Positions 7,649-48,914 of a stretch of DNA of 64,000 nucleotides are shown one piece after another. This DNA is from a virus (lineage: Duplodnaviria > Heunggongvirae > Uroviricota > Caudoviricetes): positions 1-64,000 of IMG/VR virus record IMGVR_UViG_3300047548_001036; one strand, 5' to 3'. A program made the position numbers and the translations under genes. The notes below the pieces were generated by a model, which was not told the DNA's origin, ran no database searches, and saw only the letters and a program-made list of their open reading frames with translations. Each line of letters begins with the position of its first letter. Positions within the stretch are counted from its first letter, which is position 1.

Positions 7649-7655
7649 TAACATT

Positions 7656-8086: not shown

Positions 8087-8089
8087 CTC

Positions 8090-8944: not shown

Positions 8945-8954
8945 GGATTAAATC

Positions 8955-9807: not shown

Positions 9808-9809
9808 AA

Positions 9810-10061: not shown

Positions 10062-10318
10062 TGAATATCCGCAAGCGTTTGAAAAACAAACTCAAGTTGT
10101 TGCCTAGGTATAGTGATCACCAAGCAACCGAATCGCGTAGGCCTCGAAAGAACGCAACTTACTTTAGTGATTGGTGTTGTTCCCAATGTTATTGGGATTG
10201 GGGACGTGGATGGGATGGACACTATAATTATCGGCATAACTGTGCAAAAAGCAATTACGACGGGTTACTGAAGAAATACTGGAAACCAACTGACAACTAC
10301 AAGGATAATAATGAGTAA
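10061..10318 (+). CDS. hypothetical basic, W/C-rich protein (85 aa)
   Basis: ORF. Confidence 0.4.
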   Translation: MNIRKRLKNKLKLLPRYSDHQATESRRPRKNATYFSDWCCSQCYWDWGRGWDGHYNYRHNCAKSNYDGLLKKYWKPTDNYKDNNE

Positions 10319-10496
10319 TTTATGGTTTAATATACGGTTCGGCACACGACACTGGCAGTGGGGTCCGGATGGCATGAACTTTAGTCAGAACCCGGCTCAG
10401 GTTGAATGGAAACACTCTGAACCGGAAACCTGGAGGTGGTTCGCGATTTATACCGCGTTTGGTAAAAATTTGAACCCCACATATGAACTGTGGTAA
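10311..10496 (+). CDS. hypothetical Trp-rich small protein
   Basis: ORF. Confidence 0.35.
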   Translation: MSNLWFNIRFGTRHWQWGPDGMNFSQNPAQVEWKHSEPETWRWFAIYTAFGKNLNPTYELW

Positions 10497-10526
10497 TTTT
10501 AAACCCTATACTTCAGAAACACCACT

Positions 10527-10718
10527 ATGAGTTACATGACATACACAATCAACGAACAGATTAAATTTCTCGAAAGTGAAATCACACGAGTTAAAGAACT
10601 GATAAACGAATCCAGTTTTGATTGCACCACTAGTGTTTACGTTATTGTTAAGCAGTACCGTGATGCTATGAAGAAACATCTGCAAATTCTTCGAATGAAC
10701 CTAGAGGACATCGAATGA
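10527..10718 (+). CDS. hypothetical protein (63 aa)
   Basis: ORF. Confidence 0.4.
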   Translation: MSYMTYTINEQIKFLESEITRVKELINESSFDCTTSVYVIVKQYRDAMKKHLQILRMNLEDIE

Positions 10719-10810
10719 AACGCTTTTGGATGACCTGTACCGAGTGTGCACTAACCGAAGTGATGCAACCATGTGAAGCCTGTCCAAACAGACGGGCACA
10801 AGGACTATGA
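10715..10810 (+). CDS. tiny CxxC..CxxC zinc-ribbon-like peptide (31 aa)
   Basis: MKRFWMTCTECALTEVMQPCEACP, ATGA-coupled. Confidence 0.3.
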   Translation: MKRFWMTCTECALTEVMQPCEACPNRRAQGL

Positions 10811-11091
10811 ACTCTACTTTTGAACGGCTTGCCAAACAAGCCGGTGCACATTGGAATCACGGAGACTTCAATATGGGTGCATCTGTAGAGTTCCAAGAAA
10901 GTGATTTGGAAAAGTTCGCTATGTTGATTGTTCAGCAATGTATACACTACCTCGACGGTGAGATTAACCGGTTGTGCGAGTATCAGAAGTCCTTGCCAGA
11001 CCGAGATGAAAATAAGCGAGACAATGTTGATTTGGTCATTGAAAAATGTATGGACAACATTGCCGGGTTAAAAGAACATTTCGGAATTTAA
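10807..11091 (+). CDS. FAELIV..HFG family small protein
   Basis: MNSTFERLAKQAGAHW...KFAMLIVQQC...EHFGI. Confidence 0.55.
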   Translation: MNSTFERLAKQAGAHWNHGDFNMGASVEFQESDLEKFAMLIVQQCIHYLDGEINRLCEYQKSLPDRDENKRDNVDLVIEKCMDNIAGLKEHFGI

Positions 11092-11101
11092 AAGGTAACT
11101 T

Positions 11102-11626
11102 ATGTGGCACGCACCGCTCCCGTTAAAACTTGTTCCAACGACTAGTTCCGAATCATTTAAACAAATGCCCAGGGGTCACACTGGTCTTCCCCTGCGTCCG
11201 CATCCAGGCGCGTTTGCGGTAAAAAGAAAGCATCATATCCATGAGGGTATAGATTTATATGCACCCGTAGGTACACCCGTGTTTGCTGTCGAGACTGGAG
11301 AAGTCAAATCCGTTAGGCAGTTTACTGGTCCGGAGCTGGGTCATGATTGGTGGCTGCCAACCTGGGCTGTCTGGGTTGAAGGTGCCAGCGGGGTAGTCGT
11401 GTATGGTGAGCTGGAGCCCAGGGTGCATGTCGGCGACCACATTCGTGCCGGGGATTGTGTGGGCGCTATTGTACCGGTGTTAAAAACTAATAAAGGTAGG
11501 CCAACTAGCATGTTGCATTTAGAACTCAGGACACCTAATGCTATGCAGGACATCGACTGGCATGCAGATTCCCGGATGCCTGATGGGTTACTCGATCCTA
11601 CACAATTTTTGTTGGATATTTGTTGA
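11102..11626 (+). CDS. M23 family (LytM-like) metallopeptidase
   Basis: HxGIDLYAPVGTPVFAVETGEV motif typical of peptidase M23. Confidence 0.6.
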   Translation: MWHAPLPLKLVPTTSSESFKQMPRGHTGLPLRPHPGAFAVKRKHHIHEGIDLYAPVGTPVFAVETGEVKSVRQFTGPELGHDWWLPTWAVWVEGASGVVVYGELEPRVHVGDHIRAGDCVGAIVPVLKTNKGRPTSMLHLELRTPNAMQDIDWHADSRMPDGLLDPTQFLLDIC

Positions 11627-11643
11627 AATCTGAGGAGTTAAAA

Positions 11644-11907
11644 ATGACATATGCATATAGTGAGGCTGTAGCCTTTGAGAGCTCGGGAGATTTGCCCTAT
11701 AACCAAGAAACAAAAGAGTTTACGCTCACACACGAAACTTTAGAGCAGTATGCAAGGATCATTGCTTATAAGGTAGCACATAATATTAGTAATGGGTATA
11801 AAATGGATCCCACAATTGATCCGCTAACTTACATCGACTGTCGTAACTTTTCTAACGATAACGGATACCCGGATTATGAAATAATGCCAGTTGACGAATC
11901 AGATTGA
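11644..11907 (+). CDS. hypothetical protein
   Basis: GAGGAG RBS before ATG 11644; ORF opens at 11620. Confidence 0.45.
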   Translation: MTYAYSEAVAFESSGDLPYNQETKEFTLTHETLEQYARIIAYKVAHNISNGYKMDPTIDPLTYIDCRNFSNDNGYPDYEIMPVDESD

Positions 11908-11920
11908 TTATCACTTTCAA

Positions 11921-12172
11921 ATGAACCAACAAATACTTGACATTGTTAGGCAAAATGAACGAATCCGTAATCTCTATGAGATCGGACCAGTTCAGCAGGC
12001 AGAGGTAGAGCAGTTTGCAGAAGACTTGCTGATCATTGCTCGAAATATCGTGTTAAACGGACTTTACGATGAAGAAGAATTTAACCCTGCAGATCCTTGG
12101 CATCAGGGTCACAACCAGGCATTGATCAATGTTGCTGAAGGCATAAAGAACTACTTTGAGTTGCGTGTATAA
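11921..12172 (+). CDS. small protein, divergent FAELIV-like (QFAEDLLIIARN...NYFEL)
   Basis: motif similarity; ORF opens at 11891. Confidence 0.45.
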   Translation: MNQQILDIVRQNERIRNLYEIGPVQQAEVEQFAEDLLIIARNIVLNGLYDEEEFNPADPWHQGHNQALINVAEGIKNYFELRV

Positions 12173-12180
12173 TATACACA
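12164..12180 (+). promoter_or_regulatory. conserved phage promoter cassette
   Basis: CGTGTATAATATACACATAGACAACAAAC. Confidence 0.6.
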
Positions 12181-12202
12181 TAGACAACAAACTGGAGCAG
12201 AT

Positions 12203-12571
12203 ATGAAGCGTGGTGATCAAGTTAGCGTGTGCTACGATGGCAAGTGGGGTCGTCGAGTAGAAGGCACTGTCCTTGCTACTGACCGTGGAGGACGTATCTT
12301 GGTTCGATTTGTTCCTTGGGCCAGTGACCTGGAAAATCCAGTGGATCATTGGTTCCATGTTCGTCGTCGCAGTGCTCGTTATGGTGGGCCGCGCAAGTAT
12401 TTCGCAGGCTTTGTTCCGGTGCAGGTCAGCCTCATGCGCAATCTGTTTGGCACGTATGGAGATTGGTATGAAGTCAAGTCACTTTCGTACAATGTTGATA
12501 ACACCAAAACAGGTCGTTGGTTTCGTAAGCAACTGTACAAGATGAACACCGAAAATAAAACATCCACTTGA
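12203..12571 (+). CDS. hypothetical protein (122 aa)
   Basis: ORF after promoter cassette. Confidence 0.5.
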   Translation: MKRGDQVSVCYDGKWGRRVEGTVLATDRGGRILVRFVPWASDLENPVDHWFHVRRRSARYGGPRKYFAGFVPVQVSLMRNLFGTYGDWYEVKSLSYNVDNTKTGRWFRKQLYKMNTENKTST

Positions 12572-12575
12572 GCCC

Positions 12576-12592
12576 GCGTTATAATACACACA
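12576..12592 (+). promoter_or_regulatory. conserved phage promoter cassette
   Basis: GCGTTATAATACACACATAGACAGCAAAAAC. Confidence 0.6.
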
Positions 12593-12623
12593 TAGACAGC
12601 AAAAACCGTTAAAGGAACACACA

Positions 12624-12917
12624 ATGCGTAAAGAGAACTTGGAATATAATGTCAAGAATGCGATCTCTGCTCTGCAAGATCTGATGGATCAAGGCTACAA
12701 GGTCGAGGATGATACGGTGCTGGAGTGGAAGGACAAGTATTACGACCTAGTGTTCACTATTCGAGATCACCTGTATAATGCCGAGGCCCTGTACAAAGAT
12801 ATGCAAGACAACGGTCTGACTCTAGGCACTGCCGAGGCCGAAGGCTATCTGCGTGGTGCTAGGTACTTGTATAATTGTGTCAAAGATGACATTGCAGGAG
12901 ACGATGGCGAAATTTGA
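12624..12917 (+). CDS. hypothetical protein (97 aa)
   Basis: ORF after promoter cassette, AAAGGAAC RBS. Confidence 0.5.
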   Translation: MRKENLEYNVKNAISALQDLMDQGYKVEDDTVLEWKDKYYDLVFTIRDHLYNAEALYKDMQDNGLTLGTAEAEGYLRGARYLYNCVKDDIAGDDGEI

Positions 12918-12932
12918 GTGTATAATACACAT
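12916..12932 (+). promoter_or_regulatory. conserved phage promoter cassette
   Basis: GAGTGTATAATACACAT. Confidence 0.55.
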
Positions 12933-12959
12933 ATGGACACCAACACAGAGGAACGACAA

Positions 12960-13700
12960 ATGAACATTGAACAAACTATTAACAAACTGGCTGTAGGCTG
13001 CCTGCCTAAGTGGCCGCAGATGCTAGTTTCAGGAAAGCCAGTTACTGTTGAACAGGCCAAGGACATTATCCTGCGCACTGATCGGTTCCTTACTGATGCA
13101 GACGATTTTGCCGGAGGTAATGCTCGTGAGTTTAATCGCGAGTATCGTAAGATGGCCGGATTGACTCGCATTCAGAAAACCAAGCAGTACCCTGAAGGCC
13201 ATAGTTATGTTACTGCTGATTGGGATCTGCAAGACAAAGTCAAAGACGCACTTGGCGTAATTGAAACTGAGTATGTGCGTAATGATTGGGCTAGCTGTAG
13301 TTTCATCGGTGGTCCGCACGGCTGGTGTCATCCTGACGGCACCATTTACTTTGACGACAATGTAGGCAAGTGGCCTAGCATTGAAGACATTTACAGAGAG
13401 TGGGGGGACATCGCTCAAGAATTTCCCTATCTTGACCTGCATGTCACGCTGATGAGCGGTGAGAGCTGCGATGATTACAGCCGCCCAGTGATCAATATTC
13501 GCGTAGTCAATGGCGAGGCTACCTTGGCCGAGCCTGATGACACAGTGCATAGTTATCAGAAGCAGACCTCGGAAGATAAGGTGGAACAATTTGTTGAATC
13601 CATGCGTAATTTTGGTACCAGTCGAGAAATTGGCCTTCCGGCAAAGTGGTATGAAGAATTCGCTGAGCGGGTTCGCACTGCGGTGGCAACCGTGCTATAA
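12960..13700 (+). CDS. hypothetical protein (~246 aa)
   Basis: first ATG with RBS (GAGGAAC) downstream of the promoter box. The ORF-list start 12918 lies inside the -10 box. Confidence 0.5.
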   Translation: MNIEQTINKLAVGCLPKWPQMLVSGKPVTVEQAKDIILRTDRFLTDADDFAGGNAREFNREYRKMAGLTRIQKTKQYPEGHSYVTADWDLQDKVKDALGVIETEYVRNDWASCSFIGGPHGWCHPDGTIYFDDNVGKWPSIEDIYREWGDIAQEFPYLDLHVTLMSGESCDDYSRPVINIRVVNGEATLAEPDDTVHSYQKQTSEDKVEQFVESMRNFGTSREIGLPAKWYEEFAERVRTAVATVL

Positions 13701-13709
13701 TACACATAG
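13690..13709 (+). promoter_or_regulatory. conserved phage promoter cassette
   Basis: CCGTGCTATAATACACATAG. Confidence 0.6.
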
Positions 13710-13728
13710 ACAATAAAGGACTAAGACG

Positions 13729-13953
13729 ATGGCAAAGGCAAAATCATACTTTTGGACTAAAGCAGCAGGGGTCAATGCCGACATTGAACGCCATCGTGAA
13801 CGGGAACAAGAGCTGCAAGCACGCATAGATGAACTGGAGGCCAAACCAGTCAAGACCGAGCGTGATCTGATTGCGATCCGCACTTGGCGGAACTTCATGT
13901 GCCAGCTGCAAGCTAGCAAGGCTGAAGCTGTGGGCCGTCTTGGCCGTAAGTGA
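13729..13953 (+). CDS. hypothetical coiled-coil protein (74 aa)
   Basis: ORF. Confidence 0.45.
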   Translation: MAKAKSYFWTKAAGVNADIERHREREQELQARIDELEAKPVKTERDLIAIRTWRNFMCQLQASKAEAVGRLGRK

Positions 13954-13962
13954 CGCAAATCT

Positions 13963-13977
13963 GTGCTATAATTGACT
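13963..13977 (+). promoter_or_regulatory. conserved phage promoter cassette (variant)
   Basis: TGTGCTATAATTGAC. Confidence 0.5.
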
Positions 13978-14006
13978 TACCGCAACAAACAACACACGAT
14001 CCAAAC

Positions 14007-14147
14007 ATGTTCTACGTTAACCTATTTTTCAGCGCGTACAGTTCATATCTGTTTGCAACTTCAGAAACTGGCCTGGACCGTACGATTAACGGTTTGGCGA
14101 TTTTTCTGAATTTGGCAGCAGTGTGGTTACACCTTGCTAACCAATAA
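14007..14147 (+). CDS. small hydrophobic protein (FFSAYSSYLFATSET...LNLAAVW), paralog of 17372-17518
   Basis: ORF plus paralogy. Confidence 0.45.
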   Translation: MFYVNLFFSAYSSYLFATSETGLDRTINGLAIFLNLAAVWLHLANQ

Positions 14148-14162
14148 CAAAGGAACACTACC

Positions 14163-14279
14163 ATGCAACTGAAACTGAAACTTACTCTCCGCCAAGTCAC
14201 TGCCCGCACCCAAGCTGAAGTTATGGGCCGCACAGTTAATTGGGCAGCGTTTAAGCAGGTCATGGACCGCGCATATTAA
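14163..14279 (+). CDS. small protein MQLKLKLTLRQVTARTQAEVM..., N-terminus paralogous to 16505-16843
   Basis: shared 21-aa N-terminus. Confidence 0.4.
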   Translation: MQLKLKLTLRQVTARTQAEVMGRTVNWAAFKQVMDRAY

Positions 14280-14409
14280 AAGGAACATCGATCATGGAAA
14301 AGCGTGATATCATCACAATTGGAGTCGGATTCGTTATTATGACAGCTGGAATCGTCTGGTTGGTTAGTATTGTTCAGCGTATCAGTTGTGGAAGTTAAAG
14401 GAGAACAGC

Positions 14410-14610
14410 ATGGCACAGATTACCAAACCCATAGCATATCGCGTAGATATCATGGAGTTCGATCGTTTTATGGGCAGCAAGTTGGATGAAACTATCTACT
14501 TTGATAACGAAGCAGAAGCTCGCGAACATGTACGCAATTTCAATTCTCTGAACACTGCAGACACTGTACCGGATTGGTATATGGTTGCTGAATATTGTGG
14601 GCGGGTTTAA
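14410..14610 (+). CDS. hypothetical protein (66 aa)
   Basis: AAAGGAGAA RBS before ATG 14410; ORF opens at 14386. Confidence 0.45.
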   Translation: MAQITKPIAYRVDIMEFDRFMGSKLDETIYFDNEAEAREHVRNFNSLNTADTVPDWYMVAEYCGRV

Positions 14611-14611
14611 T

Positions 14612-14857
14612 ATGAACGAACGAATTCGAGAACTTGCTGAACAGGCTAGCGAAAAAATCAATTACAGAGTCGATCCGAATACATTCAGTGAAATTGACGA
14701 TCCGAACGGTCCCCACATTCGAACACAATTCAATAAAGAAAAGTTCGCCGAGTTGATTGTGAAAGAATGTATGCAAGTGTCAATGAAGTCTGTTGAAATG
14801 GACGCAGATTACGAAGCATGGTATTTGATTAAACAGCATTTCGGAGTTGACGAATGA
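14612..14857 (+). CDS. FAELIV..HFG family small protein
   Basis: MNERIRELAEQASEK...KFAELIVKECMQ...HFGVDE. Confidence 0.6.
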   Translation: MNERIRELAEQASEKINYRVDPNTFSEIDDPNGPHIRTQFNKEKFAELIVKECMQVSMKSVEMDADYEAWYLIKQHFGVDE

Positions 14858-15011
14858 AACAATTTAAGGTATCTGTCCAGATTGGGTTCTATTCGGAACC
14901 TTATGCTCATCACACAGTGTGGGCATACAATAAGCAGGATGCTCTTGCTCGTGTTGATGCAATGTTGCCCAAGTATGCGGGTCATAGATTTTTGAATGTT
15001 GTGATGGCATG
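14854..15011 (+). CDS. hypothetical small protein (52 aa)
   Basis: ATGA-coupled ORF. Confidence 0.35.
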
Positions 15012-15245
15012 AACGAACGAATTGGAAAACTATTGAGTCGGTCCGGTGGTGAATTTTATGAGGGATGGTTAGGTAGTCCCAATACTATCAGGTTTACCGA
15101 GGATGAATTGAAAACTTTCATCGAGTTGATTGTGGAAGAGTGTGTTAGTCAATGCTGGACTGCATCAGAAATTGAACACAAAGGATATGTTATTTCTGAA
15201 TGTTCTAAAAGGATGAGAAAACATTTCGGAGTTGAAAATGAATGA
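15009..15245 (+). CDS. FAELIV..HFG family small protein
   Basis: MNERIGKLL...FIELIVEECVSQ...HFGVENE. Confidence 0.6.
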   Translation: MNERIGKLLSRSGGEFYEGWLGSPNTIRFTEDELKTFIELIVEECVSQCWTASEIEHKGYVISECSKRMRKHFGVENE

Positions 15246-15441
15246 ACGAATTCGAGAACTATCAGCACAGGCTGGCTTCACAGCGAATGATGATCAAAAG
15301 GTTTTCTTGAGGGTATATGAACAAGAACTGGTAAAGTTCGCAAAGTTGATTGCGCAAGAATGCGCTGATATTTGTTACAACAGGGATTATACCTGTGGCA
15401 GCGCATACGGCGATGATATTGTGGAACTTTTTGGAATCTGA
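15241..15441 (+). CDS. FAELIV..HFG family small protein
   Basis: MNERIRELSAQAGF...FAKLIAQECADI...LFGI. Confidence 0.6.
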   Translation, partial: NERIRELSAQAGFTANDDQKVFLRVYEQELVKFAKLIAQECADICYNRDYTCGSAYGDDIVELFGI

Positions 15442-15447
15442 CTGAAC

Positions 15448-15469
15448 TTGTGCTATAATATACACATAC
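15448..15469 (+). promoter_or_regulatory. conserved phage promoter cassette
   Basis: TTGTGCTATAATATACACATAC. Confidence 0.6.
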
Positions 15470-15493
15470 AGTAAACAACACAAAGGACCAAAA

Positions 15494-15742
15494 ATGCAAA
15501 CTGATCTTTACAATACGGCATTGCGTTATGCAAAGATTGTTCGTGATAGCACCAACAGCAATGGCAAACCCAACACCCATGTTAAACGCGATAATGTTCT
15601 GGCGGTGCTCACTTATCAGTTTGCAGGGACTGATGCCACCGGCCAAGGACGAGTTGTTACACGCGAGTTTATGGAACGACTGGCGCGAGATGTGGGTGGA
15701 ACTTACGAACTCAATCCTGCTCGAATTGTGTTCACACGTTAA
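15494..15742 (+). CDS. hypothetical protein (82 aa)
   Basis: ORF. Confidence 0.45.
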   Translation: MQTDLYNTALRYAKIVRDSTNSNGKPNTHVKRDNVLAVLTYQFAGTDATGQGRVVTREFMERLARDVGGTYELNPARIVFTR

Positions 15743-15785
15743 ACTGACATAATATCTGACAACGAAATGGATAAGGAATAAGATC

Positions 15786-16148
15786 ATGGCACGCAAGACC
15801 AAGGCAGAACGCGAAGCAGAAGCACATCTGGCCCGCGTCGAACAGGAAATGAGGGCTCGAGACGCATACCCAGCCCTGCTCATGGAGACGCTAGAACGCG
15901 CAGCCAAACTGAGCTTCGACCTTCGCGTTCGTGACGGCAAGTTCGAAGTCCTTGATAGTAATTCTCCGGTAGACTATTGGACGCTGACCTATGACTACAC
16001 CCCCGACGCTGACAGCGATCTGGACATGCTCCGGTGGGAAGTTGAGCGGCAAGAACAAGCCATAGCAGAAGCCAATCGCAAGATCCAAGCCCGGCAAGCT
16101 GCTCTGGCCAAACTGAGCCTGGAAGAACGCGAACTGCTGGGACTTTAA
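15786..16148 (+). CDS. hypothetical coiled-coil protein (120 aa)
   Basis: ORF. Confidence 0.5.
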   Translation: MARKTKAEREAEAHLARVEQEMRARDAYPALLMETLERAAKLSFDLRVRDGKFEVLDSNSPVDYWTLTYDYTPDADSDLDMLRWEVERQEQAIAEANRKIQARQAALAKLSLEERELLGL

Positions 16149-16268
16149 CACGCAATGAAGCCCATTACTCGAATTAGAATCGCAAGTATTTTAGCTATGC
16201 TACTCTGCCTAATTACAGTCATTGTTGGTAGCATACTTGCCCAATTATAAAGATCTAGAAGACAAACC

Positions 16269-16466
16269 GTGCTGGATAAAATTTATGACCTAGCTTTGGG
16301 TTGGGCTGGATTAGTATGCCTGTGCATAGCGTTGCTAATAGGACTGGCATCTACTGTTGGCCCAGGTCCTGGCTATGATACCAAAGCTGATTGCGAATCT
16401 GCCGGTGGCCAATGGGTACAGACTATGAAAGCCTACCACACCTGTAAGTTCAGTAAATCCAATTAA
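16269..16466 (+). CDS. small membrane protein (65 aa; start uncertain)
   Basis: hydrophobic N-terminus. Confidence 0.35.
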   Translation: MLDKIYDLALGWAGLVCLCIALLIGLASTVGPGPGYDTKADCESAGGQWVQTMKAYHTCKFSKSN

Positions 16467-16468
16467 CC

Positions 16469-16488
16469 CTGTGCTATAATACACTCAC
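16469..16488 (+). promoter_or_regulatory. conserved phage promoter cassette
   Basis: CTGTGCTATAATACACTCAC. Confidence 0.6.
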
Positions 16489-16504
16489 ACAAAGGAACAC
16501 AATC

Positions 16505-16843
16505 ATGCAACTTAAACTTAACCTTACTCCCCGCCAAGTCACTGCCCGTACCCAAGCCGAAGTCATGAGTCGCATTCGTGATCGACATTTGTTCAGTTTT
16601 GGCGGTCTGGGTAATGCTCTTATCCCCTACCCTGGCGACCGCAAAGACCATGTGCGAGTCTATAGCCTGGAGAAGCGTCGTAAGCGTGTTGAACGAGTCA
16701 ACACTGGCTTGGTTCGTAGTACCCATGTGATTAGCCGCGGTCATTGGGTTGGTAACTACTACGATATTCCTGCTAGTCTGCTGGAAGCTGCTGGTCTGAA
16801 AGTTGTTCAAGGACCACGAACTTTTGAGATCAAGAAGCGATAA
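16505..16843 (+). CDS. hypothetical protein (112 aa), N-terminus MQLKLNLTPRQVTARTQAEVM
   Basis: ORF. Confidence 0.5.
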   Translation: MQLKLNLTPRQVTARTQAEVMSRIRDRHLFSFGGLGNALIPYPGDRKDHVRVYSLEKRRKRVERVNTGLVRSTHVISRGHWVGNYYDIPASLLEAAGLKVVQGPRTFEIKKR

Positions 16844-16844
16844 T

Positions 16845-16865
16845 GGTGTTATAATACACTTACAG
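16845..16865 (+). promoter_or_regulatory. conserved phage promoter cassette
   Basis: GGTGTTATAATACACTTACAG. Confidence 0.6.
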
Positions 16866-16886
16866 CAACACACTAGGAGTAGAAAA

Positions 16887-17050
16887 TGACCAATTATGTT
16901 GTCTATCAAGTTGAGTTTGGTGCAGATGTTGATGGTCGCGGACCGGAGCGCTGGAGGTGTGGTGAAGTGGGGCGCTTTGCCACCGAAGCAGAAGCAGAAG
17001 CTTTCATGGAAACTTTCTATGATTACTGTGAGGTTGAGGTAGAAGACTAA
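16887..17050 (+). CDS. hypothetical small protein (54 aa)
   Basis: TAGGAG RBS, follows promoter. Confidence 0.4.
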
Positions 17051-17056
17051 CGGACT

Positions 17057-17078
17057 GATGTTATAATACACTTACAGC
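17057..17078 (+). promoter_or_regulatory. conserved phage promoter cassette
   Basis: TGATGTTATAATACACTTACAG. Confidence 0.6.
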
Positions 17079-17099
17079 AAACAACACCTGGAGTAAGAG

Positions 17100-17318
17100 A
17101 TGGCAACTGTAGCAGAAATGATCGAGTTCTTCAAGACCCTTCCGCAGGATGCCATCGTTGAGTGCGGTGTGGAGCAGATTGGCGGCTATTACACTGAGAT
17201 GGCCATGAAGCCCGTGGACATTGAATCCATCAAAGTCCTCGACTATTCGAGCGAGGAATACCGCAAGCTCTATCCGTCGATGGAAGGAAAAATCTACATC
17301 GAACTCCACGGCGAGTGA
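17100..17318 (+). CDS. hypothetical protein (72 aa)
   Basis: ORF after promoter, GGAG RBS. Confidence 0.5.
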   Translation: MATVAEMIEFFKTLPQDAIVECGVEQIGGYYTEMAMKPVDIESIKVLDYSSEEYRKLYPSMEGKIYIELHGE

Positions 17319-17322
17319 CATT

Positions 17323-17344
17323 CTGTGCTATAATACAATTACAG
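17323..17344 (+). promoter_or_regulatory. conserved phage promoter cassette
   Basis: CTGTGCTATAATACAATTACAG. Confidence 0.6.
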
Positions 17345-17371
17345 CAACACACTACACATTGAGTTCAAAAC

Positions 17372-17518
17372 ATGATCTACATCTACATCAATATCTTTTT
17401 CAGCGTAGTCAGTGCATATCTTTTTGCAACTTCAGAAACCGATTCGTCCCGTGCGATTAGCGGTTTGGCGCTTTTGCTGAATTTGGCAGCAGTATGGGTT
17501 AACATCGCTAATCAATAA
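17372..17518 (+). CDS. small hydrophobic protein, paralog of 14007-14147
   Basis: FFSVVSAYLFATSET...LNLAAVW. Confidence 0.45.
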   Translation: MIYIYINIFFSVVSAYLFATSETDSSRAISGLALLLNLAAVWVNIANQ

Positions 17519-17531
17519 CAAAAGTTCACAC

Positions 17532-17702
17532 ATGCCACTTTATGAAATTAGGTTTAAGGTCATATATCAATATGCTGATCTTAGTGCAAGTGTGGAAACG
17601 ACCCGCATCCGCGCAATGTCCCGCAGTCAAGCAATAGATCAATTCTATGGTGACATGACGGGATACAGTTTTGAAATCATCGACGTTACGGAATGTAATT
17701 AA
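17532..17702 (+). CDS. hypothetical small protein (56 aa)
   Basis: ORF. Confidence 0.3.
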   Translation: MPLYEIRFKVIYQYADLSASVETTRIRAMSRSQAIDQFYGDMTGYSFEIIDVTECN

Positions 17703-17711
17703 GGAATAACC

Positions 17712-17993
17712 ATGTTGACAGCAGCAGAGGCACTTAAAATTAGTTGTGCAAATGATCCCGGCGGGATTGTAACCAAGATTCTATCTCTGGTGGAGGCCGC
17801 AGCAAACCAGGGCGATCGTTCGATTCAGTATCGAGGAGCCGGTTTCGGTGACAGTGCGGTCTATAATGTAGAAACACAATGGCCCAAGATGAATCAGTTG
17901 GTTGTCAAACGTCTACGAGACCTGGGTTACTCTGCGAATGTTCGCTGCGAAGAACGACAGTTTGTTGATCTATGGCTGGAGGTTAATTGGTGA
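17712..17993 (+). CDS. hypothetical protein (93 aa)
   Basis: ORF. Confidence 0.5.
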   Translation: MLTAAEALKISCANDPGGIVTKILSLVEAAANQGDRSIQYRGAGFGDSAVYNVETQWPKMNQLVVKRLRDLGYSANVRCEERQFVDLWLEVNW

Positions 17994-18214
17994 ACATGGA
18001 TCATGTTACAATAGGAACACGGGTGCAGGTTACCACTGGACGTAACGCTGGCGAAGTTGGCAACGTTATTAATACTGAGCGTACACCCAATGGTGTGCTA
18101 TTGGTTTATATTGATTTTGATCGAATGATTAACGTCAACGAGGGGTATGGTTCGGTAAACATGTACCCGGATGGATACTGGGTTTCGGTTAACGATATTA
18201 AGGAAGTTATATGA
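17987..18214 (+). CDS. hypothetical protein (75 aa)
   Basis: ORF. Confidence 0.45.
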   Translation: MVNMDHVTIGTRVQVTTGRNAGEVGNVINTERTPNGVLLVYIDFDRMINVNEGYGSVNMYPDGYWVSVNDIKEVI

Positions 18215-18558
18215 CAGTTCGTTTTGAATTTGAACTCAGTGATGTGGATGCAGAAAACCTGCTAGACATCCTTCATTCGGAGTATACTCGTACTTTGCTC
18301 AATCAAGAGCGTGCCATGGTTAAAGAGCAGACTGCAGAAGCAGGTTGGTACAGTCGGCATGCAGAGTATATTGCACAGCTGAAGGCCAAAATCGCAGCTG
18401 GCAGCAGCCGTGCCGAGGATAATAAAGCAGAACCTGTGTTAACTGATGCAGACATCGAAAAACTTATTGTGCCCGGCGATTATCTGACACCTGCTGGTCT
18501 GGTAAAGTTTGTGCGATCTGTGTTAAACGCTTGTCGACAAGGAGGAACCTTTCAATGA
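18211..18558 (+). CDS. hypothetical protein (115 aa)
   Basis: ORF, ATGA overlap. Confidence 0.5.
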   Translation: MTVRFEFELSDVDAENLLDILHSEYTRTLLNQERAMVKEQTAEAGWYSRHAEYIAQLKAKIAAGSSRAEDNKAEPVLTDADIEKLIVPGDYLTPAGLVKFVRSVLNACRQGGTFQ

Positions 18559-18803
18559 AACAGGTAGAAGTATTTCGTTTGGCCCGGCAAGCCGGATTTG
18601 CCATAGACGTTCACACCGGCAACATTTGTGCATCGCATGGTATGCGCAACTGGGTAATAACTGAAGAACTGCAACGACTTGTTCAACTAGTGGTTGATGC
18701 TGAAAGAGCTGCAGCGGAGAAGCGTATAATTGAAACGTTTAAAACGTTAGGGGATGCATATCTTCCAAACATCATCGACGCAATTAAGGACACACATGAC
18801 TAA
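18555..18803 (+). CDS. hypothetical protein (82 aa)
   Basis: ATGA-coupled ORF, AAGGAGG RBS; ORF opens at 18531. Confidence 0.5.
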   Translation: MKQVEVFRLARQAGFAIDVHTGNICASHGMRNWVITEELQRLVQLVVDAERAAAEKRIIETFKTLGDAYLPNIIDAIKDTHD

Positions 18804-19192: not shown

Positions 19193-20290
19193 ATGTTTCC
19201 GTATATTATTCAAGGCAATTCTATCAGCATCGTCGTCGACCGCAAGCCTTATACCATTAACAAGACGCACATTACCTACGATAAGCTTCGTGCGGCCATC
19301 AAGGCTGAGGACTGGAATGCAGTTCGTGAGCTGGTCGAACCCAAACAGGTGGTGATTAATTATGCAGTGGGCAACGTCACTATCCGTGGTGACGAGTTCT
19401 TCTGGAACAATCGCCCCATGCACAATGCATTGAGCAACAAGATGATCGAGATGCTGCGTGAAGGGTTCACTATCGATCCCCTGATCAACTTCACTGAAAA
19501 CCTCATGCAGAACCCTAGCAAGCGTGCAGTTGATGAACTCTATGGCTTCCTTGACAAGGGCAACCTCCCCATCACACCCGACGGCCACTTCCTGGCTTAC
19601 AAGAAGGTTCGCGAGGATTACACTGACTGCCATACTGGCAAGATCAGCAACCATGTTGGCGCACTCGTTACCATGGAGCGCAATGAAGTTGATGACAACC
19701 GTGATCAGACTTGCAGCACTGGCCTGCACTTCTGCAGTCAAGAGTACCTCAAGAGCTTTGGTGGCGCTCGCACCATGATCCTTAAGATCAACCCGCGTGA
19801 TGTTGTCAGTATCCCTAGCGATTACAACGACAGCAAGGGACGCTGCTGCCAGTACGAAGTTATCGGTGAGCTGGAAGCTGCTCCGGAAAAAGCTTTTACC
19901 AAACCCGTGCAAGCTAACGCACAGGGTGTCAAGACTATTGAACCCAAGACTGGCAGCACCCCGTTCTATCATGGCTACAACGATGGCTATCAAGGACTCT
20001 ACCATGCTTCGGATGCATATTGCCTGAGTGAAAAGGATCGCACTGATTACAACGAAGGTTACAGCAAGGGCAACACGGATCGTTGGAATGGCACCGAACG
20101 TTATCGTTACGTTCCCAAGCCGCAAGTTGACAGTCGTGGTCGCGCACTAAGTATGACCAAGGATGCTATTCGCAAGCGCGAGGCCCGTGCACGGGCCCGT
20201 GCGCAAGCTGCTGCTAACAATGTAGCTGCTGCTACTGTAGCTACTGCTAACGCTAACACGGGCTCTGCATGGCCCTTCCCTAAGGCCTAA
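19193..20290 (+). CDS. hypothetical protein (365 aa) with Tyr/Asp/Gly-rich segment and Ala-rich C-terminal tail
   Basis: large ORF with RBS; no family recognised. Confidence 0.55.
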   Translation: MFPYIIQGNSISIVVDRKPYTINKTHITYDKLRAAIKAEDWNAVRELVEPKQVVINYAVGNVTIRGDEFFWNNRPMHNALSNKMIEMLREGFTIDPLINFTENLMQNPSKRAVDELYGFLDKGNLPITPDGHFLAYKKVREDYTDCHTGKISNHVGALVTMERNEVDDNRDQTCSTGLHFCSQEYLKSFGGARTMILKINPRDVVSIPSDYNDSKGRCCQYEVIGELEAAPEKAFTKPVQANAQGVKTIEPKTGSTPFYHGYNDGYQGLYHASDAYCLSEKDRTDYNEGYSKGNTDRWNGTERYRYVPKPQVDSRGRALSMTKDAIRKREARARARAQAAANNVAAATVATANANTGSAWPFPKA

Positions 20291-33532: not shown

Positions 33533-33781
33533 ATGAACATGAACGAAAATATTCAAGAGCTAGCCGAGCAAGCAGGGTTTTATGTTGCGATGTTCGATCC
33601 AGGTAACCAAGAAAACGCAAAGCTAGAACGCTTTGCTGAATTGATAATTAAACGATCCGCTGATCTGATCGCCATGCATGCAGGTCAACTGAGACAGTTT
33701 AACTTTGAACTAAACGCCAAGACTGCAGATACCGCAGCGGGGTTATTGCTAGAGCACTTTGGATTTAAGGAAACACAATGA
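33533..33781 (+). CDS. FAELIV..HFG family small protein (outlying member)
   Basis: MNENIQELAEQAGFY...RFAELIIKR...HFGFKE. Confidence 0.55.
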   Translation: MNMNENIQELAEQAGFYVAMFDPGNQENAKLERFAELIIKRSADLIAMHAGQLRQFNFELNAKTADTAAGLLLEHFGFKETQ

Positions 33782-43265: not shown

Positions 43266-43289
43266 TTATAAATACATCAAGGTGGCAAT

Positions 43290-44125: not shown

Positions 44126-44374
44126 ATGCTAATACACGAATTTATTAATCAACAAGATATCGACGACTTAGACGAAAAGGCCAGTCGAGCACTATGCCTA
44201 AGTACCAAATCAAACAAATCACTGGGTGCAAGTAATTTATCCAGTTGTAAAGCACAAGGCCTACGCTCACGCGAGGGTAAAAAGAAATACAAGATAGGAA
44301 AGAAGAACATCTCAGTTGGTGGACAAAAGGTCAAGGGCGAAAAATATGGTGGCCCAATTCATGATTATGGTTGA
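44126..44374 (+). CDS. hypothetical basic protein (start uncertain)
   Basis: ORF 44096-44374. Confidence 0.3.
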   Translation: MLIHEFINQQDIDDLDEKASRALCLSTKSNKSLGASNLSSCKAQGLRSREGKKKYKIGKKNISVGGQKVKGEKYGGPIHDYG

Positions 44375-44392
44375 TCCACAAGATAGTTAAAA

Positions 44393-45349
44393 ATGAAAGC
44401 TAGAGAATTTTTAAAAGAAGCTAAATCAGCCAAGTATAACAACTTGGCTATGAAGTATGCCTTTAATGATAATGCTTTAATATTGAAGGCATTTTCTAAA
44501 GAAGGCCCGTTAGCTTTCGCCAAATTTCTAAAAGAAGATCAGAATCTTTATCCACAACATCTATTTGTACATGATGACCATCAAAACAAAGGTATTGCTA
44601 AAGCAATGTATGACTATCTAAAGAGTGAAGGTTATACCATTCATAGAAGTCATGATCAAACTAAGGCAGGTGCTGGGTTTTGGGATAATCATCGTGGTAA
44701 AGGGTCGTCAGTTTGGGAAGAAGCTGCACTAGGTGAAGCTCCATTGCCCGCGGACTGGGATCCTGCGCAATATCGGCCAGGCACCACATTCAAGGATCGC
44801 CTAGCTTATGCTTTAGAAAGAGCAAAAAAGCTAGGAACTGGATCCAGTCGAGTTGCCACCATTATTGAATATCAAGGTCGTCCTACAGTGTTAAAGATTG
44901 CAAAAAATCGAAAAGGACTGGCACAAAACTCTGTAGAAGCCAGCATATTAGAGGATTGGTATGCCAAGAAACTGGATATCCTAATCCCTCTGATTGATTA
45001 CGACGAGCAAAATCAAGACCCCACGTGGATTCACACCGAAGTAGCAAATAAAGCTACTGAAAGGCAGTTGTGCAACCTTATGAAATGCGATAACTTAAGT
45101 CAGCTGGTTAATATGTCGAGTTCTATCGCAAAAAGGAAAATGTTTCAAGATCATTTTAGATCCAAAGGCCGAAGTGAAGAGGATATTGAAATCGTCAGTG
45201 AATATGCTGACAAGTTATACGAGCTGTATACAAATTTCGATGTAGAATTAGTGGACATGATCGGCGCCCGTAATTGGGGCATCTACAATGGCAAGCCAGT
45301 TATAATCGATATTGGGTTTAATACCGATGTAATGAAAAGGTTTTATTAA
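44393..45349 (+). CDS. putative capsid-packaged internal protein: CTS-like N-terminus MKAREFLKEA, GNAT-like segment, unknown C-terminal domain
   Basis: N-terminus matches T4 IP capsid-targeting sequence pattern MK..EF(I/L).EA; QNKGIAKAMYDY resembles GNAT motif A. Confidence 0.5.
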   Translation: MKAREFLKEAKSAKYNNLAMKYAFNDNALILKAFSKEGPLAFAKFLKEDQNLYPQHLFVHDDHQNKGIAKAMYDYLKSEGYTIHRSHDQTKAGAGFWDNHRGKGSSVWEEAALGEAPLPADWDPAQYRPGTTFKDRLAYALERAKKLGTGSSRVATIIEYQGRPTVLKIAKNRKGLAQNSVEASILEDWYAKKLDILIPLIDYDEQNQDPTWIHTEVANKATERQLCNLMKCDNLSQLVNMSSSIAKRKMFQDHFRSKGRSEEDIEIVSEYADKLYELYTNFDVELVDMIGARNWGIYNGKPVIIDIGFNTDVMKRFY

Positions 45350-46207
45350 ATGAGAGCTAGAGAATTTTTAAGAGAAGCACCTAACCCTGCAGCAACTGCT
45401 ACAGCACCAGTGACACCAAAACCAGGTGCATTTAGCGTAGATGTGCCACAGGGCAGGCGAGGGGTTGAAGTTGCAGATTTACAAAAAGCTCTGATAGCAT
45501 TAGGTTATCAGCTGCCCAAGCACGGTGTTGATGGTATACGTGGTCCGGAAACTAGCGCAGCCGTAAAACAATTTCAACAAGACACCCAGTTAAACACAGA
45601 TGGAATTCCTGGACCAGAAACCATTGATAAACTTAATGATGTCTTAGCATCTAAGCCTAACATTACTGCTACTCTTAAAAAGAGTCTGCCCGCAGAAGTA
45701 AAAGCACCTGCTGCTAGTAGCTCGAACATTGATACCACACACATTCAAGATCCTACGTTTAATGGAAAGCTTAAGAAAATTGCAGATGACCTTGGAGTTA
45801 AATCTTCGGACCTGATTGCCATAATGAAACTGGAATCGGGTGTGAATCCTAAAGCAGTTAACTCTATGTCTGGTGCAACAGGACTTATACAGTTTATGCC
45901 TAAAACGGCACAGTCCCTAGGCACAACTACACAAGCACTGTATAGTATGTCTGCTGTAGACCAACTCGATTATGTCTACAAATACTTTAAAATGGTAGGT
46001 GTTAAGCCAGGTATGACCTTACAGGATTTATACATGGCAGTGTTTATGCCTGCAGCAATGGGCAAGGGCCCCGACCATGTGTTGGGGCAAAAAGATGCGC
46101 CTGGTTTTGCCGGCAAAGTGTACGCACAAAACGCAGGCCTAGACAAAAATCGGGACGGAACAATAACTGTTGCAGATGCAACTCAATCGGTATCAAAATT
46201 TGCATGA
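45350..46207 (+). CDS. peptidoglycan-binding + lytic transglycosylase (SLT-like) protein with CTS-like N-terminus MRAREFLREA
   Basis: PG_binding_1-like LQKALIALGY...DGIRGPETSAAVKQFQ; SLT motif ESGVNPKAVNSMSGATGLIQFMPKTA. Confidence 0.6.
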   Translation: MRAREFLREAPNPAATATAPVTPKPGAFSVDVPQGRRGVEVADLQKALIALGYQLPKHGVDGIRGPETSAAVKQFQQDTQLNTDGIPGPETIDKLNDVLASKPNITATLKKSLPAEVKAPAASSSNIDTTHIQDPTFNGKLKKIADDLGVKSSDLIAIMKLESGVNPKAVNSMSGATGLIQFMPKTAQSLGTTTQALYSMSAVDQLDYVYKYFKMVGVKPGMTLQDLYMAVFMPAAMGKGPDHVLGQKDAPGFAGKVYAQNAGLDKNRDGTITVADATQSVSKFA

Positions 46208-46755
46208 AACATCTTATAGGAAACTTACTTATCTCTCCTCCTAGCATTGACCATGGATTCTTTCAGAAAAGCGTTATACTGCTAACTGAAGATCACTCCG
46301 GAGGCAATGTAGGAGTCGTATTGAACAAAACTAGCAAAGTAAGTTTAAACGAGTTTGCAAAGCATAATAATGTTATATTAGATGTGCCAGGGTATGCACA
46401 TATAGGAGGACCAGTAAACCCAAAAGCGTTGACCATGATTCACACCAATGATTGGGCTTGTTCGAATACTATGCGTATCAATGATTTGTTCAGTATTAGT
46501 AGCAGCCCTGATATATTTAATTACTTGGCCAATGGATATTGTCCGGAACATTGGAGGATATTTGTTGGTTTGTGTAAATGGACTCCGGGACAGTTATCAA
46601 AAGAGGTTAATGGGTTACCTCCATATGAACATAAGTCTAGCTGGTTAACCGCAACCGCGGACTTGGATATTGTGTTCGAAACAGATGCCGATGACCAGTG
46701 GAGTGAATCCATAGAAAGATCAGGTTCTGAATTCGCTCAAAACCTCTTTGAATAA
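46204..46755 (+). CDS. YqgE/AlgH family (DUF179/UPF0301) protein
   Basis: GNLLISPPSIDHGFFQKSVILLTEDHSGGNVGVVLNK matches YqgE/AlgH N-terminal signature. Confidence 0.6.
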   Translation: MKHLIGNLLISPPSIDHGFFQKSVILLTEDHSGGNVGVVLNKTSKVSLNEFAKHNNVILDVPGYAHIGGPVNPKALTMIHTNDWACSNTMRINDLFSISSSPDIFNYLANGYCPEHWRIFVGLCKWTPGQLSKEVNGLPPYEHKSSWLTATADLDIVFETDADDQWSESIERSGSEFAQNLFE

Positions 46756-46811: not shown

Positions 46812-47327
46812 ATGAGCGATACACTTTTACTAAATTCGGATGCGCAGCCTGTCAGCTGGTTACCACTTAGCACATTGACATGGCAAGATGCCATTAAGTA
46901 CATGATTCTTGAAAAAGCTCGTGTAGTTGAATGGCATGAAAATTGGATAGTACATTCTGCCAGTTGGGAAACTCAGGTCCCGGCAGTTATGATGTTAACT
47001 GAATACATGAAACCAAAAACTGCAGTTAGATTTTCCAAGTCTAATGTGTTTTTACGAGATCAGTACACCTGCGCTTACTGCGGATCTAAACTAGAAAAGG
47101 GCGTATGCACATTAGATCATATTTTACCTAGTAGCCATGGTGGACGTACTACGTTCGAAAATTGCGTAACTGCATGTTCGCCGTGTAACGCACGAAAAGG
47201 AAACAATAAGAAGATTGTTCCCAAGTTTAAGCCGCACAAACCTGATTTTTGGGAATTGGTGCACAAACGCAAGCTGCAACCGTTTCATGTCAAACATCCA
47301 AGTTGGTTTGACTACATACAAGTATGA
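46812..47327 (+). CDS. HNH endonuclease
   Basis: CAYCGSKL...LDHILPSSHGGRTTFENCVTACSPCNARKGN. Confidence 0.7.
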   Translation: MSDTLLLNSDAQPVSWLPLSTLTWQDAIKYMILEKARVVEWHENWIVHSASWETQVPAVMMLTEYMKPKTAVRFSKSNVFLRDQYTCAYCGSKLEKGVCTLDHILPSSHGGRTTFENCVTACSPCNARKGNNKKIVPKFKPHKPDFWELVHKRKLQPFHVKHPSWFDYIQV

Positions 47328-47734
47328 AGCAATTTTTATGGAAACTGTTGGGCTTTGCTAGTCTGTGTCTGGCATACATTGGGTTGATTACTCCGGGCTT
47401 GCCTTACTCGCCGTTTATTGTATTTGCTGCCTATTGCTTTTCAAAAGGGAGCCCGCGTATGCATGCCTGGATTTACAATCACAAGGTATTTGGGCCATTT
47501 CTAACAAACTGGACCGAAAAACGAGTGTTCCCCATACGTATGAAATTCTTCATGCTGGCCATGATGACTACCAGTTTAATCATCATGTTTAGCAGCGGAG
47601 TTAAACTCATAGGTGTTATTTCTACTGCAATTTTCATGGCACTGGTTGCTATCTGGGCCTGGAGATTCCCCAGCAGTGTGACCGAACATGAACGTAGAAT
47701 TGCACAAGGTAAAAAGATCGGTTGGTTTAAATAA
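47324..47734 (+). CDS. YbaN-like inner membrane protein (DUF454)
   Basis: [50 protein letters not shown]. Confidence 0.55.
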
Positions 47735-48914
47735 TTGCTTTCAGTGCATTTATTAAATCTTCAATCATACCATCTGTATGCATAGGGGTAGGAACTAATC
47801 TTAAACGTTCAGTTCCTACATCTACTGTTGGTGAATTTATAGCCTGAACATATATGCTATACTCATTTAACAATATATCACTGAACTCCTTAGTCTTAAA
47901 CGCATCACCTATCAATATGGGAACGATATGCGTATTGCTAGGCATAAACGGCAACCCTGCTTTATCTAATAAGTACTTGAGTTTTTGGACTCTACCCTGA
48001 TGCTCTTCTCTAAGACTGTTGTGTTCTTTTAGATATCTTACAGACGCCAATGCCCCTGCACACAACACGGGACTAAGACTGGTTGTAAAAATAAACCCTG
48101 CTGCAATACTACGAATTGCATCAATAACTACAGAATCTGCAGCAATGTATCCCCCCTGAACACCAAATGCCTTACCCAAGGTGCCGTTTACAATATCAAC
48201 ACGATCTTGTAATCCTAGTTTCTCTAATTTGCCGGCGCCTGTTCCTCCATACAGTCCAACGGCGTGGACTTCGTCGATGTAAGTCATAGCCTGGTATTGA
48301 TCTGCAAGGTCGCAAATTTCACGAATCTTGCTGACATCACCGTCCATGGAATAGACGCTTTCAAACACCACACATGGTGTTTTTCCTTGCTCTCGACTAC
48401 GTCGTAAACACGATTCTAGATCATCTAAGTCATTGTGAATAAAAACTTGTTTTGCAGCCTGGCTATGTTTAATGCCTACGATTATACTGTTATGATTTTT
48501 ACTATCACTGATAAATTCGATGTTAGGGATTATTTTGGACAATGCAATCATAGTCCATTCATTGGCCACATAGGCACTGCTGAACAACAGTGCTCGATTT
48601 TTCTTGTGTAATGTAGCAAGCTCATGTTCTAATGCTACATGATAATGAGTGGTTCCAGATATATTACGTGTGCCACCACTGCCTGCACCAGTCATATCAA
48701 TCGCGGTATGCATGGCATCAAGTACAACTTTATGCTGCCCCATGCCCAAATAATCATTACTGCACCAGTTTACGATGTTCTTAATAGCGTATGGTCCGTA
48801 CCAAATTGAATTAGGAAACTTCCCACTTTCTCGCAATATGTTGTTAAAAACCCTGTATTTGCCCTGCTGTTTTAAGTCAGTGATAACATTTTGAAATATA
48901 CTTCGGTCTATCAT
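47727..48914 (-). CDS. hemA: 5-aminolevulinate synthase (PLP-dependent alpha-oxoamine synthase family)
   Basis: KYRVFNNI...[12 protein letters not shown]...[13 protein letters not shown]...ELATLHKK and PLP-lysine region TLGKAFG. Confidence 0.75.

Follow-up and report, generated by a model that had tools for sequence, protein, structure and literature searches.

Two abutting genes of an uncultured tailed virus encode otherwise unrelated proteins behind one shared N-terminal leader, and with a probability of roughly 0.6 we read this leader as a variant of the T4-type capsid-targeting propeptide, which would make both proteins enzymes that are packaged in the head, trimmed by a protease and ejected. 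The genes lie in IMG/VR record IMGVR_UViG_3300047548_001036 (Caudoviricetes), of which positions 1 to 64,000, hereafter the window, were analysed. Open reading frame (ORF) A (44393..45349, plus strand, 318 aa) starts with MKAREFLKEA, and ORF B (45350..46207, plus strand, 285 aa), which abuts it, starts with MRAREFLREA. The leader proper, MKAREFLKE in A (44393..44419, plus strand) and MRAREFLRE in B (45350..45376, plus strand), is predicted to be cut after Glu9, giving FLKE↓A and FLRE↓A (arrows mark cleavage positions).

The starts of the two genes are identical at 27 of 29 nt, with 9 residues in common. Both nucleotide differences between the leaders are Lys/Arg replacements and none is synonymous. 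The 29-nt start pattern has exactly two copies in the 64 kb, against 0 expected from 100 shuffles, and a direct repeat of 31 nt (44391-44421 and 45348-45378) is 94% identical. BLASTP aligns residues 1-9 of A and B and nothing beyond. The initial annotation, made from the letters of the window, had described adjacent genes with near-identical starts and unrelated remainders, and both descriptions are confirmed. It had also raised the prospect of further ORFs of the MKAREFL type; a six-frame peptide search of the window returned no third copy of the leader peptide.

Beyond the window, the leader recurs in front of very diverse proteins. A scan of IMG/VR with the degenerate pattern MRAxEF[ILV]xE, in which the AGA codon was fixed so that all counts are lower bounds, yielded at least 120 stretches; the strict form of the pattern (Arg4 plus Lys or Arg8) had no match in IMG/VR. 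Among the 150 matches listed, 147 begin ORFs of at least 40 aa (at least 147 in all), and only 9 have an in-frame ATG upstream. With the leader stripped, the listed ORFs form at least 33 unrelated cargo clusters, and the contigs among the matches listed reach 524 kb. Position 7 in this set is I in 92, L in 31 and V in 19 cases, and position 10 is mostly G, A, S, D, E or Q. Pfam recognizes DUF6267, Amidoligase_2, GH19 and LysM with tail lysozyme among the listed cargoes and, below its cut-offs, Kinase-PolyVal and (weakly) GNAT; a ParB-like GNHR motif, found by eye, and small proteins rich in K/R or in Gly/Tyr complete the range. For the most part, the cargo families consist of cytoplasm-type enzymes or of small basic proteins, not of exported proteins. 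In loci around the relatives of A, leader genes form clusters of 2-5 adjacent members, with up to five within 7 kb. We found no description of this leader in a literature search that included the literal leader strings.

The codons of the leader vary synonymously across loci (GCT/GCA/GCC/GCG, GAA/GAG, TTT/TTC and ATA/ATT/ATC/TTA/CTA), and this variation shows that selection acts on the leader peptide. Among 57 neighbouring leader pairs, 0-11 of 27 nt differ, with up to 5 synonymous codon changes, and the pair in the window (2 differences, 0 synonymous) is among the three most alike. As read from these sequences, the near-identity of A and B points to a recent duplication or conversion atop long-term conservation of the peptide.

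The arrangement resembles that of the T4 genes ipII and ipIII, which have an identical 32-nt start encoding MKTYQEFIAE↓A, diverge thereafter, and have e (endolysin) and nudE as neighbours. For targeting to the T4 head, the ten N-terminal residues of IPIII are enough; within this capsid-targeting sequence (CTS), residues 4 and 7 serve targeting and residues 8 and 10 processing, and gp21 cuts after L/I-x-E (PMC9026906). In T4, replacing this Glu by Asp prevents processing and leaves targeting intact. The site in T4 gp23 is FLTE↓A. Aligned by the cleaved Glu, MKAREFLKE↓A presents the same E-F-(I/L)-x-E↓A as the CTS, with the equivalents of T4 F7, I8 and E10 conserved in the leader, and as a sequence motif FLKE↓A and FLRE↓A match the gp21 site, L/I-x-E followed by a small or polar residue. 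The two also agree in their place at the extreme N-terminus, their length of about ten residues, their sharing by adjacent unrelated genes even at the level of DNA, and a variable cargo that includes small basic proteins. They differ in that the leader described here has nine residues, not ten, with the consensus MRAxEF, precedes a far wider cargo (at least 33 families, among which are wall hydrolases and enzymes of several domains) and occurs in uncultured, distantly T4-like phages, for which packaging and cleavage are predicted; T4 Tyr4, moreover, aligns with an invariant Ala. The CTS likeness put forward in the initial annotation is upheld by the comparative tests, among them cargo-wide conservation and the F/I-L/E match, but does not extend to Tyr4.

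Two other systems of processed or delivered head proteins offer partial parallels. Giant phages such as phiKZ, 201phi2-1 and SPN3US likewise process many head-internal proteins after Glu, and the SPN3US paralogues gp53 and gp54 have identical 15-residue N-termini with cleavage motifs and are diverged over the rest (PMC5694885). Their propeptides, however, are usually longer than 100 aa and are cut by gp21-related proteases at A/S-x-E, and no short universal leader runs across dozens of families. The polyvalent proteins of Iyer et al. (2017) are predicted to be packaged in the capsid, delivered with the DNA and cut into separate effectors (PMC5512222). Strings of GNAT, minimal kinase, ParB-like, HD/NUDIX and lytic domains are found in leader proteins too, and the variable strings of conflict-type enzymatic domains by which polyvalent proteins are recognized occur in the relatives of A and in other leader proteins. 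The leader proteins differ from them in being small, with 2-3 modules, and in their predicted cutter, a prohead protease acting at L/I-x-E rather than an embedded metallopeptidase.

Cultured phages connect leaders of this kind with head genes and, in one case, with virions. Alishewanella phage Slicko01 carries nine genes that start MKIxxLYES(L/M/I)(L/I)xE and belong to at least five unrelated families, including a homologue of the C-terminal domain of ORF A; four of the nine are homologous to the N-domain of one protein with the MRAxEF start (MRA-type). This phage has a T4-type gp20/gp21/gp22/gp23 module, with a gp21 homologue 30% identical to T4 gp21 (E 7e-16), and its protease and core proteins show ..IITE↓S and ..MITE↓S near their N-termini, in the pattern (I/L)ITE↓S for core proteins. 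The annotation of Slicko01 is apparently shifted in this region (L139 38612-41377; OQ508956.1 138612-141377): its 'prohead core protein' is the gp21-type protease, its 'precursor of major head subunit' matches the gp22 scaffold, and the gp23 major capsid protein is the match (27% identity, E 2e-32) of its 'DNA polymerase I' (140130-141377).

A second bridge is the cyanophage cytidylyltransferase T4-GC190, which starts with MKKFSAFLNE↓A in S-SM1 and Syn19, MKKFNAFLIE↓A in P-RSM4, MKKFSEIIE↓A in Methylophilales phage Melnitz and, in the same form as the leaders of the window, MRFLDFIKE↓A in P-TIM40, a phage with gp20-21-22-23 whose capsid propeptide ends VLTE↓A. Purified virions of S-SM1 yielded 25 peptide counts for T4-GC190; that detection concerns the protein, N-terminal processing not being reported, and no link to the CTS was drawn there (PMC3037559). 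A small basic protein provides a third, starting MRAYEFINE↓DW in MRA-type phages, MKNFAQYIEE↓DW in P-TIM40 and MKSFKQLRIDINE↓S in Syn1. The P-TIM40 and MRA-type versions are 41-47% identical, their leaders being shifted by one residue in the alignment. Position 4 is still aromatic in the cyanophage intermediates (MKKFSAFLNE, MKNFAQYIEE). In a small sample, three T4-like lineages have this protein with a leader, and three T7-like podoviruses have it without one, beginning directly with the basic region. Directly 5' of the cytidylyltransferase, cyanophages have a DUF6267-family gene (T4-GC71; L220/L225, P-TIM40 157342-159606; L232, S-SM1 147295-149419) without a leader (MAKNTHLEHLEDD..). Its counterpart in MRA-type phages carries one (MRAFEFLTEA..VGREFNHLEDLVF), so that a single cargo family can gain or lose the leader.

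ORF A is laid out as leader, putative minimal GNAT and probable kinase-like domain, an architecture like that of a 'polyvalent' effector. The putative GNAT acetyltransferase domain (aa 10-114; 44420..44734, plus strand) is unusually short, at about 105 aa, and its acetyl-CoA motif, Q-N-K-G-I-A, fits the binding pattern Q/R-x-x-G-x-G/A. Pfam GNAT families all score just below their cut-offs (25.3/27, 22.6/23.6 and 19.4/20.7). The AlphaFold model has a predicted local distance difference test score (pLDDT) of about 80-92 across most of residues 10-105, and the top 50 Foldseek matches in the PDB are all GNATs, albeit at E of about 2e-3 and with only about 80 residues aligned. The C-terminal domain (aa 116-318; 44738..45346, plus strand; phrog_4301) has kinase-like motifs and is a probable minimal protein-kinase-like enzyme; it has no match to Pfam Kinase-PolyVal, and hhalign against a Kinase-PolyVal-like leader protein aligned only the G-x-PVIID-x-x-F motif. 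The GNAT-like assignment of the initial annotation is probable on these matches, and its 'unknown' C-terminal domain has kinase-like motifs.

Between the two domains lies a conserved internal site, Glu115↓Ala116 (..A-L-G-E↓A-P-L-P-A-D-W-D; 44735..44740, plus strand), at which 31 of 31 aligned homologues keep the Glu and have L, I or V at position -3. This conserved Glu before (A/M)PLP leads us to predict a second cut, separating the GNAT and kinase-like parts. The C-terminal domain stands alone in Xanthomonas phage XacN1 (MKQVRLSQFLSE↓APLP..) and in Slicko01 (MKIYNLYSTLLE↓APLP..), where the Glu equivalent to E115 closes the leader itself. Among the best 120 homologues of ORF A, 108 start MRxx[ED][FLIV], and 98% of these have [LIV]xE in residues 5-16. 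The first domain after the leader in this family is a GNAT, HD_4, NUDIX or unknown module, or the kinase-like domain alone (MRAFEFLKEEIIDEMPLPADWDP), and the architectures include HD_4+GNAT+C, NUDIX+GNAT+C and GNAT+GNAT+C. The internal site and the kinase-like motifs had been missed in the initial annotation, as had a gene with a decayed leader at 44126-44374, described below.

In ORF B the leader is followed by a Pro/Ala/Thr-rich linker, a PG_binding_1 domain (aa 38-95; 45461..45634, plus strand; PF01471, E 9e-17, 61.4 bits where the cut-off is 23) and the core of an SLT lytic transglycosylase (aa 143-195; 45776..45934, plus strand; PF01464, E 5e-10, 39.3 bits where it is 21.3), so that the peptidoglycan-binding and SLT-like domains proposed in the initial annotation both exceed the Pfam cut-offs. 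A catalytic-type E-S motif lies in ..MKLESGVNPKAV...GATGLIQFMP, with ..LESGVNP.. read from sequence, and the catalytic domain extends to about aa 282. The best PHROGs for the catalytic part are large virion-associated lysins or baseplate hubs, phrog_4928 and phrog_196 (baseplate hub) spanning aa 81-282, and those for the binding domain are endolysins. Jumbo-phage proteins matching B are labelled variously transglycosylase, endolysin or hypothetical, and the transglycosylases align with it from about residue 29-45, past the leader and linker. We take phiKZ gp144-type modular lysins, with PG_binding_1 and a lytic transglycosylase, to have the same two-domain layout; B and its close relatives differ from them in adding the N-terminal leader and linker. 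Among the best 120 homologues of B, 113 start MRxx[ED][FLIV], mostly as MRFxEF. In 75% of these, [LIV]xE falls within residues 5-16, compared with 2% of control windows taken from the same sequences. The family keeps MR[FA]xEF with [LIV]xE down to about 50% identity, the Glu standing at position 9, 10, 11 or 12.

Several relatives of B combine it with other modules. In P0239 (378 aa), a small basic protein of the 44126-44374 family is fused ahead of a B-type hydrolase, and in P0134, P0142 and P0207 (443-469 aa) an SGNH/GDSL esterase (PF13472), which might deacetylate the wall, sits between leader and PG_binding_1. The window also encodes a 174-aa Peptidase_M23 protein without a leader (11102-11626, plus strand), a second wall-hydrolase candidate whose presence bears on whether ORF B is the endolysin.

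Hints of processing come from other leader-bearing lysins. In stand-alone GH19-type lysins (L021 2992, L065, L005 10963), a twin-arginine-type signal follows directly after the leader Glu, as in MRATEFISE↓DISRRGFLGGLAG. In the 704-aa protein L093 (minus strand, ORF start 5952 of the reverse complement), the same type of signal lies in mid-chain (..NINE↓AISRRGFLRGLGGAALAGAG..), followed by LysM and then a tail-lysozyme domain. Such an internal export signal could work only if the chain is cut there, which hints at cleavage after ..NINE↓A. The fusions P0040 and P0062 retain whole internal leaders (..PKLMRASEFVKEEAK..).

The sequences show the leader pattern, its spread over unrelated cargo, the selection on the peptide and the domains present; from them we infer how the leader may engage the core and be cleaved, how the cargo may be packaged and ejected, and what it may act on. 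The leader, M-(R/K)-A-x-E-F-(L/I/V)-x-E, would bind the scaffolding core during prohead assembly, so that the attached protein is enclosed, and a gp21-type prohead protease would then cut after Glu9 of the L/I-x-E motif and free the cargo within it. In ORF A a further cut, at ALGE115↓A116, would yield two products, a small GNAT acetyltransferase and a kinase-like enzyme, each a candidate for modifying host molecules. A and B would lie inside the head and, when the next cell is infected, be ejected together with the DNA. ORF B would act as a peptidoglycan-binding lytic transglycosylase, of which an unpackaged fraction could still serve lysis. The more specific roles put forward in the initial annotation, peptidoglycan cutting during entry and an anti-defence effect of the acetyltransferase, are conjectural. 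The predicted N-termini after cleavage are AKSAKYNNLAMK.. and APLPADWDPAQYRPGTTFK.. for A and APNPAATATAPVTPKPGAFSVDVPQGR.. for B, and the predicted peptides at cleavage after the leader Glu are APLPDDWDDAMYNDR for XacN1 ORF170 and AERSFAAK.. for the S-SM1 cytidylyltransferase (SSM1_190). The leader DNA may in addition be a short homology patch, with cargo genes duplicated or swapped behind a constant leader, as suggested by the near-identical leader DNA here and in T4 ipII/ipIII.

A number of observations weigh against packaging in the head. No portal, protease, scaffold or capsid gene lies within the window; tblastn and phmmer searches with T4 and Slicko01 head proteins found no head module in 1.3 Mb of leader-bearing loci; and a gp21 alignment run against IMG/VR identified 80 gp21-bearing loci, 0 of them with an MRA-type ORF. 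As no head genes stand beside MRA-type leaders in the loci searched, the tie to a gp21-type protease rests on relatives. In the leader itself, the T4 targeting residue Tyr4 is replaced by Ala, about a quarter of the B homologues lack a clean [LIV]xE, and in Bellamy and S-RIM8 fusions of the small basic protein follow ..LHAE↓G and ..VQNE↓G, not L/I-x-E. The XacN1 virion proteome paper makes no mention of ORF170. The architecture of ORF B is, presumably, that of phiKZ-type endolysins, and it is not obvious how a transglycosylase that is delivered to the cytoplasm and lacks an export signal would reach the wall, so that B may also, or instead, act in lysis.

The leader could instead be a propeptide or tag for a process other than packaging, through which a cytoplasmic phage protease or chaperone times activation or export, or a stability tag. 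Wall hydrolases in which a twin-arginine-like signal follows either the leader (L021, L065, L005) or an internal INE↓A (L093) would suit this explanation, because such signals also fit a protease-controlled release of export-competent lysins in the producing cell, and so would the lack of head genes beside leader genes in the loci searched. We nevertheless think it unlikely, since it leaves unexplained the match to the T4 CTS at functionally mapped positions, the presence in virions of a leader-bearing enzyme family (T4-GC190) and the absence of the tag from the same cargo in T7-like podoviruses, and most of the cargo is not of an exported kind.

Distinctly less likely is that ORF B is a plain endolysin and ORF A an ordinary intracellular enzyme, their common start being the junction of a recent duplication or gene conversion without a role, a possibility already raised in the initial annotation. 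The unusually high DNA identity of the two leaders (2 of 27 nt, 0 synonymous) speaks for it, as do the jumbo-phage transglycosylase and endolysin annotations matched by B and the endolysin PHROGs matched by its binding part. Beneath that identity, however, there is clear selection on the peptide, and a junction artefact is implausible when 113 of 120 homologues of B and 108 of 120 of A, with identities of 50-77% and abundant synonymous change, have kept the leader; the catalytic part of B, moreover, best matches virion-associated lysins (phrog_4928 and the baseplate hub phrog_196). Extremely improbable, finally, is an element that works as DNA or RNA, be it a translation-initiation, regulatory RNA or recombination signal, with the peptide incidental. 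The near-identical DNA of the two copies in the window, like that of T4 ipII/ipIII, would agree with such an element, but from locus to locus the codons change and the amino acids are kept, upstream sequences are unrelated, and the two 80-nt start regions neither share a fold (z -1.7 and +1.5) nor match an Rfam family.

We regard the source phage as an uncultured myovirus that is distantly T4-like. Genes in the window include those for rIIA (1992-4160) and rIIB (19193-20290), for a baseplate N-domain of the gp9/10 type and for several tail fibres, besides many small ORFs, and the rIIA is 36-43% identical to Straboviridae proteins across the N-terminal 41-57% of its length. The DNA of the region has no similar sequence among 50,697 phage records. 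The surrounding metagenomic contig of about 106 kb begins 181 nt before the window and runs about 41 kb beyond its end, and a matching Logan contig reaches about 5 kb beyond the window, ending in tail-fibre genes.

Around the leader genes, the order is epimerase (43290), an 82-aa gene, ORF A, ORF B, an AlgH-like gene (46204), HNH and DUF454. The octamer TATAAATA, the T4 late-promoter consensus, lies 23 nt 5' of the epimerase ATG (43267..43274, plus strand), its single occurrence in the window with both strands scanned, and may be a promoter heading the co-directional run of epimerase, 82-aa gene, A, B and AlgH-like gene. The tail-fibre genes are without TATAAATA, and the phage's late promoters may differ. 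The 82-aa gene (44126..44374, plus strand), for which the Logan gene call uses the same ATG, encodes a basic protein starting MLIHEFINQQ that is 47-55% identical to the C-terminal part of L094, L116 and P0239 (E 4e-20 to 4e-22). Its leader-bearing relatives start MRASEFLNED.. (L094) and MRAQEFIKEE.. (L116), and this relationship indicates that the leader of the 82-aa gene is decayed, Arg2, Ala3 and the cleavage Glu9 having been lost.

Farther along, a 395-aa class I/II aminotransferase (47727-48914, minus strand; PF00155, E 1e-67) looks like a 5-aminolevulinate or 8-amino-7-oxononanoate synthase and may be an auxiliary metabolic gene; its neighbours are DUF454 (47324-47734), an HNH endonuclease (46812-47327) and the AlgH-like DUF179 gene (46204-46755). 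About ten small ORFs (70-95 aa), at 5903-18803 between rIIA and rIIB and at 33533-33781, have a related N-terminal motif of their own (MNERIRELAEQA.., MNNRIKDLAEQA.., MNERIRELAAQA.., MKQEILKEIARQAGF.., MNMNENIQELAEQAGF..) and look like a second shared-N-terminus gene family, or paralogues. In the leader-bearing loci outside the window, the only head-protein match is a 118-aa ORF (L126 951-1307, minus strand) with a segment 48% identical to T4 gp23 residues 94-139 (..IVGVQPM..). It sits among small paralogous ORFs ending ..NWF(I/L)LRW(G/S) and represents a fragment or mimic of a capsid protein rather than a complete capsid gene.

In its widest form, which we hold to be doubtful, the proposal would be that MRAxEF(I/L/V)xE labels a large ejectome of uncultured freshwater T4-like phages, such that any ORF starting with it is loaded into the head, trimmed and injected, and that the cut at L/I-x-E unmasks twin-arginine signals by which injected wall hydrolases are re-exported to the periplasm. 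If so, the packaged effectors of these phages (acetyltransferase, kinase, HD/NUDIX, ParB-like, amidoligase and small basic DNA binders) would be readable from metagenomes. Even as a head-loading signal alone, the leader would offer a simple sequence rule for spotting the injected proteins of uncultured phages, a class that includes anti-defence and host-takeover factors and is otherwise found only through virion proteomics of cultured phages. It would explain the presence in virions of enzymes such as the cyanophage cytidylyltransferase, and would provide new short tags with which phage heads could be loaded with foreign proteins. The CTS principle, until now established for T-even phages only, would then extend to distant T4-like lineages, each with its own consensus leader.

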